From positions 1 through 56,911 of IMG/VR virus record IMGVR_UViG_3300045988_169529: a DNA stretch of 56,911 nucleotides, one strand, 5' to 3'. Under the pieces are notes generated by a model. That model was not told the DNA's origin, did not search any database, and saw nothing but the letters and a program-made list of their open reading frames with translations. This document shows, piece after piece, positions 6,700-14,080 of this stretch. Both the position numbers and the translations under genes were made by a program. The stretch is from a virus. Each line of letters starts with the position of its first letter. The first letter of the stretch is position 1.

Positions 6700-6729
6700 A
6701 AAAAAATAACCGACAATTAATGCCGGTTA
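6700..6729 (-). terminator. Rho-independent terminator of the RHH gene
   Basis: Stem TAACCG/CGGTTA (6707-6712 / 6724-6729) is followed on the minus strand by a T7 run (A7 at 6700-6706). Confidence 0.5.
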
Positions 6730-6944
6730 CCGTGATAGTATCTTATAGCCTCATTGACATATAATGATACCGATTGCTCCTTATCCAATATAGCTGCCAC
6801 GTCCTCCTCTATTATAACAAGTATTCTTTTCACACCATTAACCTTCGGTCTTCGGGGCACACCATTGCTGTCCAATATCCTATATATCGTTTGCTCAGGC
6901 TTTGAAGATAATAGCAAAGATATCAATTCTAAAACGAAATACAA
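6717..6944 (-). CDS. Ribbon-helix-helix (CopG/Arc-like) DNA-binding protein
   Basis: The C-terminal KRILVIIEEDVAAILDKEQSVSLYVNEAIRYY fits a beta-strand/helix/helix RHH pattern. The start codon is uncertain. Confidence 0.45.
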   Translation of the reverse strand: MYFVLELISLLLSSKPEQTIYRILDSNGVPRRPKVNGVKRILVIIEEDVAAILDKEQSVSLYVNEAIRYYHGNRH

Positions 6945-7112
6945 AAAGAAAACTATATTAATTAGTTATAAGAAGCCAATGTTGAAACAAAAACCAATCT
7001 TCTTAAAAAATTGCCATTAATGCAATATTTTTTACTTGCAAGATGAATGAAGAGAATTAATAGAACGGCAAGACTGGCGAGTTTGTATATTTATTGACAG
7101 GAAACGAATGTT

Positions 7113-7313
7113 ATGGAATGGGATCGGAAAACAACTAAATCAACATCTAATTCTCCATTCGAAAGTGGTGATGGGCAAAATGCTGTTATATTTATAGGGA
7201 CAAATGATGTTCAAAAAATAGGGTTTCAAGCAACCTATTCGGGGCAATTTATTAAGATCAGGCTATATTGGGTCGGTAGTTGGGGTAAATGGCAAACTTT
7301 TTCTTTGACATAA
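7113..7313 (+). CDS. Short fibre-tip-like fragment, in opposite orientation to the cassette array
   Basis: The 66-aa ORF ends QFIKIRLYWVGSWGKWQTF, homologous to the end of tip E (VFYIRQKLGDNWGKWAKY). It has its own terminator downstream. Confidence 0.4.
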   Translation: MEWDRKTTKSTSNSPFESGDGQNAVIFIGTNDVQKIGFQATYSGQFIKIRLYWVGSWGKWQTFSLT

Positions 7314-7417
7314 AAACGATAGCATTTAATTTTATTATCACTATCTTTGTAAGGAAATGCAGATTCTCTCATAAATGACTTTACTTATAGGGTTTATAGA
7401 TTTTTTAAACCATTTTT

Positions 7418-7450
7418 AAGCAGTTGCCCGTGATGGATAGCTGCTTTTTT
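7418..7450 (+). terminator. Hairpin plus T6 terminator (plus strand)
   Basis: AAGCAG..(loop)..CTGCTT followed by TTTTTT (7445-7450). Confidence 0.5.
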
Positions 7451-7469
7451 AGACTACGCTGTTCTGCCC

Positions 7470-7488
7470 CATCCCAGAAGTACAAAAT
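7470..7488 (-). repeat. Junction repeat A (terminal stub)
   Basis: tcccagaagtacaaaat (7472-7488) is identical to 8456-8472. The coding strand reads FVLLGWGRTA-stop. Confidence 0.85.
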
Positions 7489-7490
7489 TC

Positions 7491-7811
7491 CTATACCTGT
7501 GTCAAATCTATTTTATTCCATCCAAAATTGGTATGGTTAAGTTGTCTCACATACAATTTAAACCCATCTGAAACAGAATAAAAAGCGAACTGGACTTTAT
7601 ATGAATGCCCAATGACAAATAGCGGTCCCCAACTTTGGGTAAATGGAGCATTGGAAATGTCACCAAATATTTCATACCAACCATTGTCTACTGCTAGATT
7701 TGCATCACTAACTCTCCCTCTATACATGAATGGAAACAGCTTCAAATTAGTGAACAGTTCTCCCAGCTCTCGATTTTTGGTTAGAATCATGTCAAAGATA
7801 CGGTTTGCCAA
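7491..7811 (-). CDS. Fibre-tip cassette B
   Basis: 106-aa ORF with NRELGELF near its N-terminus. The C-terminal part (WGPLFVIG..KLYVRQLNHTNFGWNKI) is homologous to tip E. Confidence 0.6.
   Translation of the reverse strand: MANRIFDMILTKNRELGELFTNLKLFPFMYRGRVSDANLAVDNGWYEIFGDISNAPFTQSWGPLFVIGHSYKVQFAFYSVSDGFKLYVRQLNHTNFGWNKIDLTQV
7756..7772 (-). repeat. Junction repeat B
   Basis: ctcccagctctcg (7760-7772) is identical to 8131-8143. It encodes R-E-L-G-E. Confidence 0.85.
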
Positions 7812-7816
7812 TTACT

Positions 7817-8110
7817 CTAAACAACATCAACAGAAATTCGTAAATAACTGAATTTGGAGGCTGGTGAATTGTTGATAATTGTAACAGTATTGCCTTTTTT
7901 CAACAAACATATTCTGCCTTCGATGTTACTATTCAAGTTAATGATTCCTTCAAACAATGCCGAAATCGTATCATTCCATTGTGCTGGAATTATAGATATA
8001 CTAGGGTTATGATTCAAGGGGGAAAATAAGATTAATATAGATGGATCATATATTTGTAAATCTGTACTTTCCCCTGTTTTTAATTCAAATTTTCCCTTAT
8101 ATATATTCAT
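7817..8110 (-). CDS. Fibre-tip cassette C
   Basis: 97-aa ORF from an ATG. The in-frame upstream sequence KRELGGLLPSGT carries the junction motif but has no start codon. Confidence 0.5.
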   Translation of the reverse strand: MNIYKGKFELKTGESTDLQIYDPSILILFSPLNHNPSISIIPAQWNDTISALFEGIINLNSNIEGRICLLKKGNTVTIINNSPASKFSYLRISVDVV

Positions 8111-8127
8111 AGTTCCACTTGGCAGAA

Positions 8128-8143
8128 GTCCTCCCAGCTCTCG
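8128..8143 (-). repeat. Junction repeat C
   Basis: It shares ctcccagctctcg with repeat B and lies between the stop of cassette D and the first ATG of cassette C. Confidence 0.85.
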
Positions 8144-8161
8144 TTTCGAATAGATTTTATG

Positions 8162-8449
8162 TCAATTATTACTGTGAATTATTATCTTAGGATCTTCCCA
8201 AGTTGAAACGTCTGGATAATTCCTTTTTCTAAATATTAATGTTCCGTCTATTGCTATTCCGAAGATGAAAACAACATCTTCTAATTGTTTTATAACCAAT
8301 CCTTGAACGACATTACCATAGAATCCTTCTCCAGCAAAAGCATTGAAATCGGAAACGAAAGGTTGAATTGTTTTTATAGGCATTTCATTTACAAAATCCG
8401 TAAATTCACTCCATGAAGAAAACGATTTTGTTCCCTTCGGATTTCCCAA
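8162..8449 (-). CDS. Fibre-tip cassette D
   Basis: The track ORF starts at a TTG that lies inside the junction. In-frame upstream reads stop-LKLLYFVLLGELLG-NPKGTKSF with no ATG. IFGIAIDGTLIFRKRN..STWEDPK is distantly tip-like. Confidence 0.5.
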   Translation of the reverse strand: MGNPKGTKSFSSWSEFTDFVNEMPIKTIQPFVSDFNAFAGEGFYGNVVQGLVIKQLEDVVFIFGIAIDGTLIFRKRNYPDVSTWEDPKIIIHSNN

Positions 8450-8472
8450 AAGTTCTCCCAGAAGTACAAAAT
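8443..8472 (-). repeat. Junction repeat D
   Basis: 8443-8461 is identical (19 nt) to 8752-8770. 8456-8472 is identical (17 nt) to 7472-7488. Confidence 0.9.
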
Positions 8473-8494
8473 ATAAGAGCTTAAGTTATAATTT

Positions 8495-9034
8495 CTATAC
8501 AAAAACACCTTCGTATTTTGCCCATTTTCCCCAATTATCTCCTAATTTTTGTCTTATATAAAAAACATTATCATTCATCGGAATGTATATTTGAGTTATA
8601 AACAAACGCCCAAAAACCAATAATCCTCCCCATGCCCTATGACCGTTAGGGGTATCTTCGTTAGTTAATCTGTCATCAATAGTATAATATCCAACCTCAG
8701 TTGCTGATGCAAATGATGTTGGATATCCTTTATCTCCTAACATTTGATTTATTCCCAAAAGTTCTCCCAGGACTTTCGCGGCAGCCGAAGAAGATGTCAA
8801 AGTTGGGTTCTTGGAACCGTCCAAAGTACGGAGCCAAGAGAAGGTGTCGGACTGGGGCAACTGATCCTCAAACTCATCTGTTCCGGCTGCCGCAGCGGCA
8901 GCAAATGTTGATATTTCTGATGCAGCGGAAACAATCCGTGCGGAAACTAATTCTGTCATCTCATCGACGGTCACCTGTCGTTCGTTGCCGTTTTTATCCA
9001 CAGCTTTAAAGCCAACTATATTATTCAAGTCCAT
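8495..9034 (-). CDS. Small fibre protein: constant N-terminal part plus tip E (apparently the expressed copy)
   Basis: 179 aa with an ATG start. An Ala-rich linker runs to ..AAKVLGELLG (junction E, internal), followed by an 80-aa tip ending NWGKWAKYEGVFV. Confidence 0.7.
   Translation of the reverse strand: MDLNNIVGFKAVDKNGNERQVTVDEMTELVSARIVSAASEISTFAAAAAAGTDEFEDQLPQSDTFSWLRTLDGSKNPTLTSSSAAAKVLGELLGINQMLGDKGYPTSFASATEVGYYTIDDRLTNEDTPNGHRAWGGLLVFGRLFITQIYIPMNDNVFYIRQKLGDNWGKWAKYEGVFV
8752..8770 (-). repeat. Junction repeat E (inside the expressed ORF)
   Basis: ttcccaaaagttctcccag encodes LGELLG, and the same 19-mer heads cassette D. Confidence 0.9.
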
Positions 9035-9050
9035 AATGCAAATTTTAAAA

Positions 9051-9470
9051 TTAAAACAAATACTTCACCCATGCAAAATAATTACTGTTCTCAATATAAT
9101 TCGGATCATCCTCGTTGGAATATGCCTCCCTCTCAAACGATACCGTCTTATACGCCCTGCCGGCATCCTTCAACCGTACCGCCCTGACCAGCCACTCCAC
9201 ACCATACCAGAGATAGAATGCCAGCCCGGCCAGTACCAGCCACCAGGCGGAAAGGTCAAAACACAACAGCAAGATCCAGATAACTGTACCGATGGCAACT
9301 GCCATCTCAACCCATTGACGGGCGTGGGTACACTCATGGTTTCTCACTTTCTGAGTGATTTTCTCTTCCGGTCGCTTGCTTAAAACAAACGGACCGATTG
9401 TTATCGTATGGCAAGAACTGAACGCAAGCAGCACCTTTGCCAGAAGGTTGTTACAATATACCTTTTTCAT
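9051..9470 (-). CDS. Membrane protein with an HExxH zincin-like motif
   Basis: RNHECTHARQW (HExxH) is followed by two hydrophobic helices (AVAIGTVIWILLLCF, WWLVLAGLAFYLWY) and FEREAY. Confidence 0.45.
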   Translation of the reverse strand: MKKVYCNNLLAKVLLAFSSCHTITIGPFVLSKRPEEKITQKVRNHECTHARQWVEMAVAIGTVIWILLLCFDLSAWWLVLAGLAFYLWYGVEWLVRAVRLKDAGRAYKTVSFEREAYSNEDDPNYIENSNYFAWVKYLF

Positions 9471-9744
9471 GTTGTTCCTCCTTTTTATCTAAATAATCAT
9501 TCAAAGAATCGGCCAGCAAGCCGGACAACATAGGGGTAGAACGTCTTATGATATCCACCTCCTCTTCGTCAAGTTCCACACCATCTACAGTCGACTTGAA
9601 GATTTTCTCCGCAAGGAGATGCGCCTTCAAGCCCGCTACGTTCTTATATATCCAGTCACCGAAGGCCTCAGTGATGTTACTGGCTATAAGCTTTTCTTTT
9701 TTAATCCCATCATAAATAGGGAATTGTGCAAAATTTATTCTCAT
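9451..9744 (-). CDS. Hypothetical protein (fibre-module associated)
   Basis: 97-aa ORF immediately downstream of the large fibre gene. It overlaps the next ORF by 20 nt. Confidence 0.55.
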   Translation of the reverse strand: MRINFAQFPIYDGIKKEKLIASNITEAFGDWIYKNVAGLKAHLLAEKIFKSTVDGVELDEEEVDIIRRSTPMLSGLLADSLNDYLDKKEEQHEKGIL

Positions 9745-9758
9745 ACTTTATATTTAAA

Positions 9759-12700
9759 TTATCCGCAATAAAACATAACCCAATAATTACCCATACACTT
9801 AATGAAGCCGGATGCAAAATCCAAATCAATATAAGACACCTCCTGTCCTCCGGGAGCAGGCAGGATCCGTCCTCCTGTCAATCTTACTCCGCCGCTCATA
9901 CGTTTGAAGTATATAGTATGTCCCGGAACATCCGGAGGAAGTGTCACTTCTATATTGCCCGTATTAATAAACATCACATTATCATCATTGTTATTCAGGG
10001 GAGTGCTGACGGATATGTTCCTCCAGTTGCCAACTATGCCACGAAGAGAAACATAGCTGTCATTGTTCGGATGAAGGAAAATGTTACCTCCCTCCACGAA
10101 TAGAGGAATGCTTGGAGTCTTGATGTGCATCCCGATCATGACATTTGGACTCTGTATGTCAATTCCAGCATCATACTTAATCCCTTCAATGGTGACAAAC
10201 TGCGTGTTTCCCCCGATTCTTACGTTTGCAAATGTCCTTTCGTTATAAAACTCAATTTGTCCGGCAGACAGATTGAAACCGACGTATTTATTTGTTTCAT
10301 TTTCATAAAGGATCTTTGAGGACAACATCCCCGAAGCGATGGAGAACGGACCGATACGTCCTCCTTCTATGTCCATATTAATGCCATGAATATAACCGGA
10401 TTCGGAATTCAGTATCAGGTTGGGCACACCATTGGTTGACTTCTGTGATTTTATATCTCCAAAAGGTATGCCGTTGGCATCCATTCCTTTATATGTGAAC
10501 ATGAATCCGCATATATTGGCTCCTGTAGCAAACAGGGTGTCAGTGGCGATATTAACAAACTTCTGCATGGCTTCCCAATTGGAATCCCCGTTGACAGATG
10601 TAGGGGCGGCGGTTACACTGGCACCATAGTTCCGCACAAGGAAATTATAATACACGCCATTGAACTTGTAGATGATCTTGTCACGATAGCTGGCGTTCCA
10701 TACATAGCTAGTACCAGATTGGAATACTCCCATATCTCTTGGAGAAGCCCCTGTCGCTCCAGTTGCTCCTATGGCGCCATCATTTGCAACACCCACCCCT
10801 TTTTCAGCGACAAAATTATTATTCCATGCGTTCGCGTCCGATGCGGATTGATAAGCCCGGACGGCAAACTGGGTGTATCCGGCTGTCGCTGGAACGGATA
10901 TCTGATTGCTTAGGGTAGCACCTACATGAGCCAGCCAGCTTCCGTTATACTTACGGGCTGCCAGATAAAGCGTGCTGCACGTGCTTACATTGCCTGCCAC
11001 ATTCTGTTTGCAAGTGACAAGGAATCCAGACGGGGATGGCGTGCCCGTACTGGTGAAGTTGATCACGCTGACAGGACTGTCCAGCCAGTAGGATGCCGAC
11101 GGTCCGACGGGAGCAACCATCTCCTGCCAGTCCGCATGTACCGTCCGGTTCGCGGATCTGCCGGCGAGGATGTATCCGCCGTCTCTTTTCCTGCGGAGTC
11201 TGCCGTTTCTGAACTTGGCGATTTTAATCGGAGGGTTGGAGGTTTCAACCTTGCTTAAGTAAGATCCTCCGGCAAACGATACTGTACTGTTCTTGGCATA
11301 CGGAGTATTGGCGGATTCCCAATGACCGGCTGCTGTGATGCTCTCACCATCCTTTCCGTCACTGCCGTCCACAACCATCGGGACAGTCTCGACATCAACC
11401 GCCTGACCGTTCACGTAGAACACGAACTTCAAGCTACTGGTAAAATTACCGGAAGCCACCCCGACACCATCACCGATGGGAACCTCGGCCGCACCGTCAC
11501 GACTGTACTTCAACTCCCCGTCCGTTGTGGCCGTAGTGACCGCACCGACTGTCTTCATACGCCGGCAGGATACCGAAGCTACACTGTAACCGCCGTTCTT
11601 GTTCTTGCTGACCATCGTGGCCGAAGTGACAAGGCTATAAATTACCGCATCGGAACCGTCCGCCCCGCCACGGACACCGGTTATCTTGAAAGTCAGTTCA
11701 CGGGTATAGAGCTGCCCGTTCTTCATTGCAGCCAGTGTGATGGTGACCGTATTCTGTTCCGGAACCGACTTTCCGGCAGCGACGGATATCGCCACCGCTC
11801 CGGTGGCCTTGCTTGTGCTTGCCGTGAAACCGGCAGGCGTGCTGACTGTTAAAGTCTCAAGGGTGAGTTTCTCGGTACCGTACCACATGGATACATGGGT
11901 AGTCCATGACTGTGCGGAAGTAGTAACACCGGTACTGGTAAGAGCGACGCTCACCATCTCATTGTCAAGGTCGGCCATGATATTCGACTCCCCGTCCTTA
12001 CTCCAACGGTGCACAGGGGCCGGAGTGCTCCATTCACTCCATACTCCATCACGCTTCACACGTTTGCACGCCCATTCCACCTGATGGTCTGCATCCACGC
12101 CAAGAAAATCATCTGTCCAGCCTTCCGGTATATAATCATCCTGCTGCTTCGAATCCGGCTTGTCAGGGGTAAGGCCGATGATGTTGGTACGGGTGTAGAT
12201 CCACTCGTAACCTTTGCCGTCCTTACCGTCAGTCCCGTCTTTGACCATGACCATCCACAAACCATTCCGGTATATGTAAGTACAATGGTCAGCCGTATTT
12301 CGGTAGCTGTCACCCTCCTTGGGATTGGACGGATGGGATGCGAACTCACCCAAGAAGGTGATACTCTCACCTTTAAGTTCACGACCGTCCAGCAGCATCT
12401 CCCAGTCTTCATGCACGGTCCAGTCGGCTGATTTCCCGGCAAGGATATAACCGCCATCCTTTTTCTTTCGATAATTGCCGTTCCTGAACCTTGCAATTTT
12501 AATCGGAGGATTGGAGGTTTCCACCTTGGATATAAAGACACAATTGGCAAGAGTGACCATTGTATTGGCTTTGTACGGGGTCTTGGAGGATTCCCAATGA
12601 CCGCCACCTACTACGGACAATCCCGGATCACCTTTTTGCCCTTCCGCCACTTGTTTCAGCCATGCCGGATTATCATCTGACGGTTCTGTTGTCGTTCCGT

Positions 12701-13955
12701 TGTCATCAACACACAACCACAAAGCCCCGTTATGTGACACCCGGTCATAGTAGGCGTACTTCCCTGCAACCCATTCACCCTTGTCCAAGGGTACACGAAC
12801 CTTGTTCCCCGTTATCTCATCTATCTGGAAGATAAGCCCAGTCAATAAGACCTGTTGCAACACGGCTGAATATTTCTCGCAATCAATTCCGTTAACGGTC
12901 ATGCCCTTTTTTTTGCCGAACCACGCAGGCATCTGCGCCGGCTCCGGGTCCCAAGTGTTGGCATTGTCAAAGAATGTAATACAGTTGTTTCCGTTGACTG
13001 AATCAATAAGTATATAAGTCTGACGTTCCGGGTCCGTAAAGTTACCTGTTTGTGCCAATACCATCTGCTCGGCAGGTTTCCAGTCAGAATGCCCCGGACG
13101 GGGAATGACAGTAAACTTCTTGGCAGTATAATCTGCGGCAGTCACCCGGAATTTCATCTCTTCAAAGCCATTCAGCTTGCCTTCGCTATTCTTAGTCACA
13201 AAATAGGTGGTAAGGATATCATCAACAAACTGGCTCAATCCGTCCGCGTCCGTCAGATCGGGAGTGATGGTGTAGGTTCCATCGCCGTTATCCACATATG
13301 ACAATACGGTACAACCACCACCGGGGGAGTTTACCATACGTCCTTTGAAATAGGTTGTACGGTTATAAGCTATTTCAGGAACAAACAAACGCTTACGGAA
13401 AACGCCGCTTCCCATTTCCATGTCACCCTTTTCGTCTATGTATCCACCTGATACACCAGTAACGAAATCACCGAACTTGGCATATTTCTTAATCAAGACT
13501 CCGCCCAGTAAGGATAACAAGTACTTAGTGGAATCAGCCACGTCCTTCCGCAAGAATATCTCTTTCAGCTTCTCCGCACTGTTCTCTATCTCAGTCATTA
13601 CACGCAATGCGCTCATCACATCCTCATCGGTGTAGGTGACATCCTTGTCACCCTGCTTTACGATGCGGTTTATCAGATTCCCGGCTATCTTAAGACCTTT
13701 GAGGTAATTAATGACCCCTTGCGCATCATCATCGTTCAATGCGGATAAGAACCAGTCAAGCACAGGCGTATTCTTATCCAGCGTGTATGCAGATGTGGCA
13801 TGGTCGGCGTTAGTGACATCGCCTCCGCCACCACTGCCGCCACCGCCGTTCTGCTTTATCTCTTCAACCTCAATGGAGATCTTGCTAAAGTTGCTGTTGA
13901 TGCGGTCTGCCGTTTCGCTCCAAGTACCTGTTTTGTTTATTGTATTAAGCTCCAT
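9759..13955 (-). CDS. Large tail fibre protein (about 1398 aa from MELNTINK)
   Basis: The N-terminus MELNTINKTGTWSETADRINSNFSK is shared with the 17747..18085 product. It has a Gly run, short collagen-like GxxGxx stretches, an internally duplicated ~70-aa module (GHWES..SKVETSNPPIKIA.FRNG..DGGYILAG) and a beta-rich C-terminus. Confidence 0.8.
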   Translation of the reverse strand: MELNTINKTGTWSETADRINSNFSKISIEVEEIKQNGGGGSGGGGDVTNADHATSAYTLDKNTPVLDWFLSALNDDDAQGVINYLKGLKIAGNLINRIVKQGDKDVTYTDEDVMSALRVMTEIENSAEKLKEIFLRKDVADSTKYLLSLLGGVLIKKYAKFGDFVTGVSGGYIDEKGDMEMGSGVFRKRLFVPEIAYNRTTYFKGRMVNSPGGGCTVLSYVDNGDGTYTITPDLTDADGLSQFVDDILTTYFVTKNSEGKLNGFEEMKFRVTAADYTAKKFTVIPRPGHSDWKPAEQMVLAQTGNFTDPERQTYILIDSVNGNNCITFFDNANTWDPEPAQMPAWFGKKKGMTVNGIDCEKYSAVLQQVLLTGLIFQIDEITGNKVRVPLDKGEWVAGKYAYYDRVSHNGALWLCVDDNGTTTEPSDDNPAWLKQVAEGQKGDPGLSVVGGGHWESSKTPYKANTMVTLANCVFISKVETSNPPIKIARFRNGNYRKKKDGGYILAGKSADWTVHEDWEMLLDGRELKGESITFLGEFASHPSNPKEGDSYRNTADHCTYIYRNGLWMVMVKDGTDGKDGKGYEWIYTRTNIIGLTPDKPDSKQQDDYIPEGWTDDFLGVDADHQVEWACKRVKRDGVWSEWSTPAPVHRWSKDGESNIMADLDNEMVSVALTSTGVTTSAQSWTTHVSMWYGTEKLTLETLTVSTPAGFTASTSKATGAVAISVAAGKSVPEQNTVTITLAAMKNGQLYTRELTFKITGVRGGADGSDAVIYSLVTSATMVSKNKNGGYSVASVSCRRMKTVGAVTTATTDGELKYSRDGAAEVPIGDGVGVASGNFTSSLKFVFYVNGQAVDVETVPMVVDGSDGKDGESITAAGHWESANTPYAKNSTVSFAGGSYLSKVETSNPPIKIAKFRNGRLRRKRDGGYILAGRSANRTVHADWQEMVAPVGPSASYWLDSPVSVINFTSTGTPSPSGFLVTCKQNVAGNVSTCSTLYLAARKYNGSWLAHVGATLSNQISVPATAGYTQFAVRAYQSASDANAWNNNFVAEKGVGVANDGAIGATGATGASPRDMGVFQSGTSYVWNASYRDKIIYKFNGVYYNFLVRNYGASVTAAPTSVNGDSNWEAMQKFVNIATDTLFATGANICGFMFTYKGMDANGIPFGDIKSQKSTNGVPNLILNSESGYIHGINMDIEGGRIGPFSIASGMLSSKILYENETNKYVGFNLSAGQIEFYNERTFANVRIGGNTQFVTIEGIKYDAGIDIQSPNVMIGMHIKTPSIPLFVEGGNIFLHPNNDSYVSLRGIVGNWRNISVSTPLNNNDDNVMFINTGNIEVTLPPDVPGHTIYFKRMSGGVRLTGGRILPAPGGQEVSYIDLDFASGFIKCMGNYWVMFYCG

Positions 13956-14080
13956 ATATCCTGTTCCACTTTTACCATTCCGCATCCGGATGCACTTCAA
14001 CGGACAGATAGTTCATTATTCTGATGATTAATTTTCGTATCATAAATATATGTTTTGAGTGTTACTGATAACTTTCCGAG

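Follow-up and report, generated by a model that had tools for sequence, protein, structure and literature searches.

The DNA analysed here is positions 1 to 56,911 of the IMG/VR virus record IMGVR_UViG_3300045988_169529, a stretch of 56,911 nucleotides hereafter called the window. It contains an array of candidate tail-fibre tip cassettes, which is read on the minus strand; coordinates without a locus number are window positions. An initial annotation, made from the letters alone, had described a 179-aa open reading frame (ORF) at 8495..9034 followed by three tip-sized blocks, D (8162..8449), C (7817..8110) and B (7491..7811), and had taken the blocks for silent cassettes able to replace the C-terminal tip of a constant N-terminal part. 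All four were found in the ORF list as described. Together with comparison against related loci (L numbers below), the following features were assigned.

8495..9034, minus strand: expressed gene of 179 aa, constant N-terminal part plus tip E (ORF list).
8771..9034, minus strand: constant part, amino acids 1-88 (...SSSAAAKV), near-identical in 22 of 24 aligned proteins whatever their tip.
8760..8770, minus strand: site S0, CTGGGAGAACT, within the expressed gene and coding for LGEL (motif match).
8495..8759, minus strand: tip E, candidate knob-type, now expressed; cluster 29, found in relatives.
8162..8461, minus strand: silent cassette D with its head site (8451-8461), 99 codons open in the site frame.
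7817..8137, minus strand: silent cassette C with its head site (8127-8137), 106 codons open in the site frame.
7787..7816, minus strand: 9-codon relic, SNWQTVSLT*, of the 3' terminus of a candidate knob-type tip, immediately behind the stop of C.
7491..7766, minus strand: silent cassette B with its head site (7756-7766), 91 codons open in the site frame.
7472..7488, minus strand: stub A, the 3' flank of B plus a half-site CTGGGA (7477-7472) joined to unrelated DNA; a degenerate site.
7418..7446: hairpin AAGCAG-17 nt-CTGCTT where cassettes B and F converge, seen by reading the sequence.
7113..7313, plus strand: cassette F, inverted, its first ~36 codons and site gone by comparison with full-length F in relatives.
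7113..7132: deletion junction with a 20-nt microhomology, GTTTTCCGATCCCATTCCAT on the minus strand (comparison with L016).

The short junction that heads these cassettes, CTGGGAG(A/G)ACT, had been counted five times in direct orientation. Four full copies are indeed present, starting at 8770, 8461, 8137 and 7766, and all copies are direct on the minus strand between 7472 and 8770; the fifth, in stub A, is only a half-site. A 14-nt pattern, CTGGGAGRACTTYT, searched with up to 2 mismatches, matched the minus strand at 7753-7766, 8124-8137, 8448-8461 and 8757-8770; the window held 5 matches against 0.95 expected, and none of 100 shuffles reached 5. The core TGGGAGAACT was present at the head of every full cassette and in the expressed gene (four copies plus the half-site). 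The previously noted 19-mer identity of 8443-8461 with 8752-8770 and the 17-mer identity of 7472-7488 with 8456-8472 both hold. Each full site opens a frame of 91-106 codons, and the sites of D and C share the frame of their tips, 8 codons past an in-frame stop and with no ATG between stop and site, as the initial annotation had remarked. In stub A, CTGGGA is followed by 5 more codons and then a stop. The same flank leads in L038 into an intact site with a cassette behind it, and in L008 and L010 the stub is found identical but inverted.

Relatives were gathered by anchoring on the large fibre's conserved C-terminus, giving 289 in IMG/VR, from which 80 loci were fetched. In nearly all of them DNA homology to the window's constant part stops at 8756-8764, the position of the site, and the cassettes beyond it are permuted. 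The tips that are silent in the window were found fused at this site: D to the constant part in L054, L049 and L032, B in L038, L009 (100% identity) and L075, and C in L044 as a const'-C fusion encoding a 197-aa protein. Tip E was present as a silent second cassette in L035 and L074. Orientation varies too, with cassette D (cluster 3) found 5 times in plus and 5 times in minus orientation, C inverted in L070 at 100% identity, and B and F inverted together in L008 and L010, which thus carry the F+/B- form of the same tail-to-tail pair. Clustering over the 80 loci gave ~58 tip types, most of them in both orientations, and the number of cassettes per array ranged from 2 to about 10. These comparisons bear out the early reading of the blocks as silent, swappable tips and its expectation of swapped tips in relatives; they support the view that D, C and B would be silent alternative C-terminal tips of one constant N-terminal part, joined to it at the site.

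The boundary is equally visible in proteins. A search with the 179-aa product gave 1643 homologues, some of them named 'pyocin knob domain-containing protein [Phocaeicola vulgatus]'. When 24 homologues were aligned, residues 1-88 were near-identical in 22, with divergence setting in right after LGEL/LGGL, and the remaining two (P0006 and P0007) had a different constant part on the same E tip. Another database protein, P0085, has two junction motifs in tandem (…AAKVLGELIGVANAEKNGLIQKSLIQILLGELMNNL…), a truncated cassette stub being read through in frame into the next cassette.

Across 218 cassette sites of the relatives, 7 bp, CTGGGAG, were invariant. The site is asymmetric: its 3' arm, RACTnnT, is partly conserved and its 5' arm shows no conservation. 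Crossover mapping over the same sites showed that positions -20 to -1 track the upstream context and positions from +7 onward track the cassette, with the invariant 7 bp between them, and strand exchange probably takes place within CTGGGAG. From site to stop, 226 of 238 frames in the relatives reach at least 80 codons when read as CTG-GGA, compared with medians of 3 and 9 codons for the other two frames.

Among cultured phages (INPHARED, queried with window 6900-9500) the sole match was 68 nt of Bacteroides phage BS-TP2. It covers the relic at 7787-7816, which has 85% identity over these 68 nt to unannotated BS-TP2 DNA; intact tips there end ...WGTWKTVSLT*. In BS-TP2 an expressed 156-aa gene (gp85) carries CTGGAAGAACTG, at least three tip cassettes are inverted, each headed by CTGGAAG(G/A)ACTG, and an 'integrase' gene adjoins the array. 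All four of its sites have the variant core CTGGAAG rather than CTGGGAG, yet its recombinase is still 95% identical to that of L054. That one core is common to all the BS-TP2 sites fits a crossover region that must match between partner sites. The BS-TP2 array (L001 4000-4933 and L002 10200-10556, corresponding to PQ571275.1 1-933 and 57277-57555) is largely unannotated and spans the arbitrary start of the linear record.

How the tips are exchanged was read from the order and orientation of the sites. In all 46 arrays with at least two sites, a run of plus sites is followed by a run of minus sites, and 32 of these arrays have both orientations. Such an order is the expected invariant for cassettes with a single head site each and recombination restricted to inverted sites. 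In L073 and L054, a 1,704-bp segment is 100% identical but inverted, with flanks of 99.95-100% identity and 12-nt overlaps at the two outer sites. Further exact inversion isomers were found between L016 and L020 (642 bp) and between L033 and L050 (653 bp); all isomer pairs found were inversions, and none was a precise site-to-site deletion. Contig ends fit the same picture. Of the 52 contigs ending inside an array, 35 stop 0-80 nt past a site, most often at 54 nt, which fits an assembly graph that branches where isomers are mixed, the repeats themselves falling below assembly k-mers in length.

A tyrosine recombinase gene was present in all 16 loci that reach far enough, starting 60-75 nt past the last minus site in 15 of them and about 500 nt past it in L035. 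The enzyme is ~400 aa long, with Arm-DNA-bind_5, Phage_int_SAM_5 and Phage_integrase domains. The second integrase of BS-TP2, encoded close to the repressor, is only 26-29% identical to the array-linked one and hence distinct. Tips in the relatives therefore appear, on comparison of their sequences, to be swapped by site-specific inversion and not by deletion or gene conversion, and the adjacent tyrosine recombinase is presumably the invertase. This departs from the initial annotation, which had proposed deletion or gene conversion acting with no dedicated recombinase: the relatives have both site orientations, exact inversion isomers and an adjoining tyrosine recombinase.

We consider it very probable that the window's locus is a disabled tail-fibre tip shufflon (a multiple-inversion system) of gut Bacteroides/Phocaeicola phages, frozen by deletion. 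In the intact system, one promoter-proximal constant part of 88 aa would end in the asymmetric site, and each promoterless tip cassette would carry the same site at its head, in frame (LGEL/LGGL), with the tyrosine recombinase gene lying just past the last cassette. The recombinase would join the expressed site, or any plus site, with any inverted site, and the DNA between the joined sites would flip, bringing a new tip in frame with the constant part; each such flip would preserve the plus run followed by the minus run. The ancestor of the window would have had the order const-E, D+, C+, B+, F-, a legitimate shufflon isomer, from which a deletion between 20-nt direct microhomologies would then have excised the recombinase gene along with the beginning of F, its site and any other inverted cassettes.

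A further layout was observed in L044 (6600-12657), and also in L025 and L030, in which the array lies between two convergent fibre modules with no recombinase between them. Each module comprises a fibre gene, ORFs of 97 aa and 139/165 aa and a constant part, and both ends are tip-fused (197 aa and 223 aa). Such a layout resembles a double-ended shufflon, in which one inversion would change two proteins.

The window itself lacks what the relatives have for inversion. No tyrosine recombinase was found in its six frames with a profile of the array-linked enzymes (best E 0.69), tblastn with the BS-TP2 integrase found nothing in the window, and Pfam scans of the 20 larger window ORFs showed no recombinase domain, in agreement with the earlier observation that no recombinase is visible. 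Nor was a resolvase domain seen among the scanned window ORFs of about 126-212 aa. There is also no inverted site in the window: all sites are on the minus strand, and the sole inverted cassette (7113-7313) is without its site. This cassette had been described as an inverted fragment related to the tips. The relationship is marginal, and the element is a genuine cassette, F, that has lost its first ~36 codons and its site; full-length F measures 102 aa from the site in L010, L016 and L038, and the window copy begins inside it.

The route of this loss can be traced in L016, where the 20-mer GTTTTCCGA(A)TCCCATTCCAT occurs twice, inside F (~8251-8272) and downstream of the recombinase gene (~9998-10018). 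A single copy is present in the window (7113-7132), in L041 and in L045, and it joins the body of F to the far flank. A deletion between the 20-nt microhomologies would thus have cost the array the recombinase gene, any additional inverted cassettes and the start of F with its site. With its four full sites and half-site all direct and no recombinase present, the array has most likely become fixed on tip E; D, C, B and F would most likely be silent relics.

A separate lesion was seen in L010, whose constant region is 100% identical to that of the window: its array-linked recombinase (8894-9595) is internally deleted, leaving 233 aa with the central core-binding part gone. This appears to be a second, independent way of disabling the system.

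The locus is closest to a shufflon reported for BV01-like phages of Phocaeicola vulgatus (preprint, September 2026; PMC13596623), an active multi-cassette system with directional 10-bp motifs, TGGGAGAACT, in which a recombinase flanks the array, the cassettes overlap the tail-fibre gene at its distal end and reads show inversion and confirm the configurations, three cassettes and six variants being described (PMC13596623). That motif lies within the site of the window and its relatives, CTGGGAGAACT, the architecture is the same, and the 1.7-kb array of L054 equals the size reported for BV01 (PMC13596623); L054 may be BV01 or closely related to it. As in that system, the window's cassettes continue the reading frame of a fibre gene's constant 5' part, and fusion proteins exist in databases. 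The window differs in having neither a recombinase nor an inverted site, the relatives described here differ in having up to about 10 cassettes per array and ~58 tip types, and beside the array, on its terminase side, the window backbone is unlike the one found in, for instance, L010 and BS-TP2. We regard the window as a degenerate member of the BV01-type shufflon because it has the same 10-bp motif and architecture; the sites and cassettes are there, whereas the inverted site and recombinase are absent. The window locus itself is therefore not a new mechanism, and the system is one that has only just been described.

Other inversion systems offer further comparisons, R64 and Gin/Cin/Min being older analogues. 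In the shufflon of plasmid R64, the tyrosine recombinase Rci swaps the C-termini of pilV at sites with a 7-bp core and one conserved arm, favouring inversion only. The relatives resemble it in the multiple inversion of C-terminal segments and in a site made up of a conserved core and one conserved arm. However, the R64 target is a conjugative pilus adhesin rather than a phage fibre, the recombinase in the relatives has a Bacteroides-type architecture (Arm-DNA-bind_5 plus SAM_5), and R64 segments have sites at both ends whereas the cassettes here have a single head site, which gives the plus-then-minus order. The Rin shufflon of Bifidobacterium prophages has a constant 5' part of a receptor-binding protein (RBP) gene, variable 3' cassettes that lack promoters and each follow a short asymmetric 11-bp repeat, TTCCCTAACCC, and a tyrosine-family invertase at the far end, with isomers differing between prophage and virion DNA (PMC6109161). 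Rin and the present system share the constant part, the site-headed cassettes and the tyrosine recombinase, but Rin has its own site sequence, another host phylum and an unrelated RBP, and there is no evidence of common descent. Gin, Cin and Min (phages Mu and P1 and plasmid p15B, respectively) are serine invertases with a Fis-dependent enhancer, Min being a multi-site shufflon. They too act on invertible DNA that switches tail-fibre C-termini and host range, but the linked enzyme in the relatives is a tyrosine and not a serine recombinase.

We then considered what the tips encode. Tips E, B and D and the inverted fragment had been called distant homologues. BLASTP supports this for E and B (7e-5) and marginally for F (B-F, 7e-3; E-F, 1.4e-2), but D matches E only over the junction peptide, so its homology to E and B is unsupported at the sequence level. 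C matches none of the other tips, as had been noticed before, and tips C and D appear to be families separate from E. Scans of E, D, C, B and F against PHROGs, Pfam and NCBIfam gave no usable family, and E itself had no NCBIfam or Pfam match. An AlphaFold2 model of the 179-aa product, built from the 24-sequence alignment, was confident only for the tip (residues ~100-179, pLDDT 78-91). The best Foldseek matches of modelled tip E in the Protein Data Bank were baseplate fibre proteins of phi812 and 80alpha and the R2 pyocin fibre (6ct8/6cl6), at probability 1.00 but with E 0.003-0.07 and TM 0.3-0.4. The model weakly suggests that the expressed product carries a receptor-binding tip, and the fibre protein would be expected to bind a receptor. 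The host assignment follows from the homologue names (Phocaeicola vulgatus), since a scan of genome-collection contigs gave three short P. vulgatus fragments only.

Several other explanations of the array were weighed against a frozen shufflon. The direct repeats might themselves mediate tip replacement by deletion or gene conversion, through homologous recombination or a recombinase that a resident BV01-like prophage, for instance, provides in trans, in which case an irreversible change from E to D, C or B would still be possible. Four intact direct sites with identical cores do persist in the window, prophages of P. vulgatus widely carry recombinases and sites of a related kind, the relatives differ in their number of cassettes (2 to about 10), and L089 and L090 keep the frame from E to the B stub with different internal cassettes. 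Nevertheless, all isomer pairs found are inversions, the strict order in 46 of 46 arrays and the asymmetric site are what an inversion-only system would give, and general recombination is not efficient over as little as 11-19 identical nt. In the R64 shufflon, direct sites are kept from recombining by their asymmetry, and direct-site recombination would be blocked here as well if the asymmetry acts in the same way. We consider this explanation quite unlikely. Most improbable is that the blocks are independent small genes for paralogous tip or adaptor proteins with their own starts, the junction being an N-terminal motif left by tandem duplication. Starts can be found, since an in-frame ATG precedes the junction of B (MILTKNRELGELF) and overlaps the tip relic's stop (ATGA), and C has an ATG 9 codons past its site, and gene callers annotate such ORFs in BS-TP2 and metagenome contigs. 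But D has no ATG before residue 27, the DNA core is invariant though the tips are unrelated, and in the relatives the same cassettes are fused to the constant part and lie in both orientations beside a recombinase.

An assembly artefact, in which a heterogeneous population was collapsed or joined over short repeats, is very unlikely to account for the window arrangement. Family contigs very often break at the sites, indicating that assemblers struggle there, but the E-D junction is crossed by L087 and L088, two further assemblies of run ERR1190586, which match window 13034-8323 at 100% identity. Likewise, in L089 and L090 B is connected by way of stub A to the DNA downstream, the junction of F with the far flank occurs also in L041 and L045, and the repeats, at 11-20 nt, are below usual assembly k-mers. 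Other candidates were rejected. Ribosomal bypassing or hopping (as in T4 gene 60) or splicing, raised by the repeated GGA-containing junction, would have to span at least 300 nt, and comparison shows rearrangement of the DNA. For a diversity-generating retroelement, a reverse transcriptase and a template/variable repeat pair are both missing, and the tips are unrelated to one another instead of being point-mutated versions. A fossil record of successive horizontal replacements accounts for the relic at 7787-7816 but not for exact inversion isomers or an invariant core.

Some points nonetheless weigh against a frozen shufflon of receptor-binding tips. The lack of switching in the window is inferred from its sequence, and a co-resident prophage could provide a recombinase in trans, phages of a related kind being common in P. 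vulgatus. The assignment as a fibre tip leans on weak fold matches (E 0.003-0.07) and a database name, and the N-terminal half of the protein model has low confidence. Finally, one deletion junction is found in two different left-hand contexts (the window as opposed to L041/L045), so the junction either recurred or spread by recombination. It is accordingly conceivable, if unlikely, that the array is not dead and that a lysogen's tyrosine recombinase acting in trans deletes between its direct sites, changing E one-way to D, C or B. A related reading, equally unlikely, takes the 20-nt microhomology as a recurrent 'locking' route because the same junction occurs in two array contexts.

Other features of the region were recorded. 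Upstream of the 179-aa ORF lie a 1413-aa tail-fibre gene (9759-14000), a 97-aa ORF and a 139-aa ORF. The last (9051-9470, minus strand), located between fibre and constant part, matches PHROG 15610 ('protease') with E 1e-21 and bears an HExxH-like motif (NHECTHARQW); relatives have either this ORF or a variant of 165-175 aa (THETIHLRQAQ), which tracks the alternative constant part. Within the fibre gene, G+C content rises to 0.50-0.55 at 11000-13000, compared with 0.35-0.45 elsewhere, and a ~205-nt repeat (12399-12603 and 11124-11328) shows 72% identity (BLAST of L087 against the window). On the other side of the array, relatives L013, L016, L020 and L082 are longer than the window by about 720 bp at 6903/6904, and the N-terminus of the window's 75-aa ORF (6717-6944, minus strand) is unlike that of the 95-aa ORF of L016 (10845-11132). 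The length and N-terminal differences suggest a possible second deletion beside the array. The hairpin at 7418..7446 could be terminator-like if read on the plus strand; a consensus scan for promoters and terminators did not pick it up and gave a signal no higher than shuffled expectation.

Taken together, the relatives reveal a system far larger than first described, with up to about 10 cassettes per array, ~58 tip types in only 80 loci and some arrays that look double-ended, and its site could be narrowed to a probable 7-bp crossover core plus one conserved arm. What the window adds is a natural 'locked' allele that would show a route of loss, in which a microhomology deletion takes the invertase and the inverted sites together. 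If the locking reading is true, a switchable phage would in this way become a lineage of fixed host range. Bacteroides and Phocaeicola phase-vary their capsules, and a phage shufflon cycling through many receptor-binding tips would be a counter-strategy to this variation, which bears on the prediction of host range and on the design of phage therapy for the gut.

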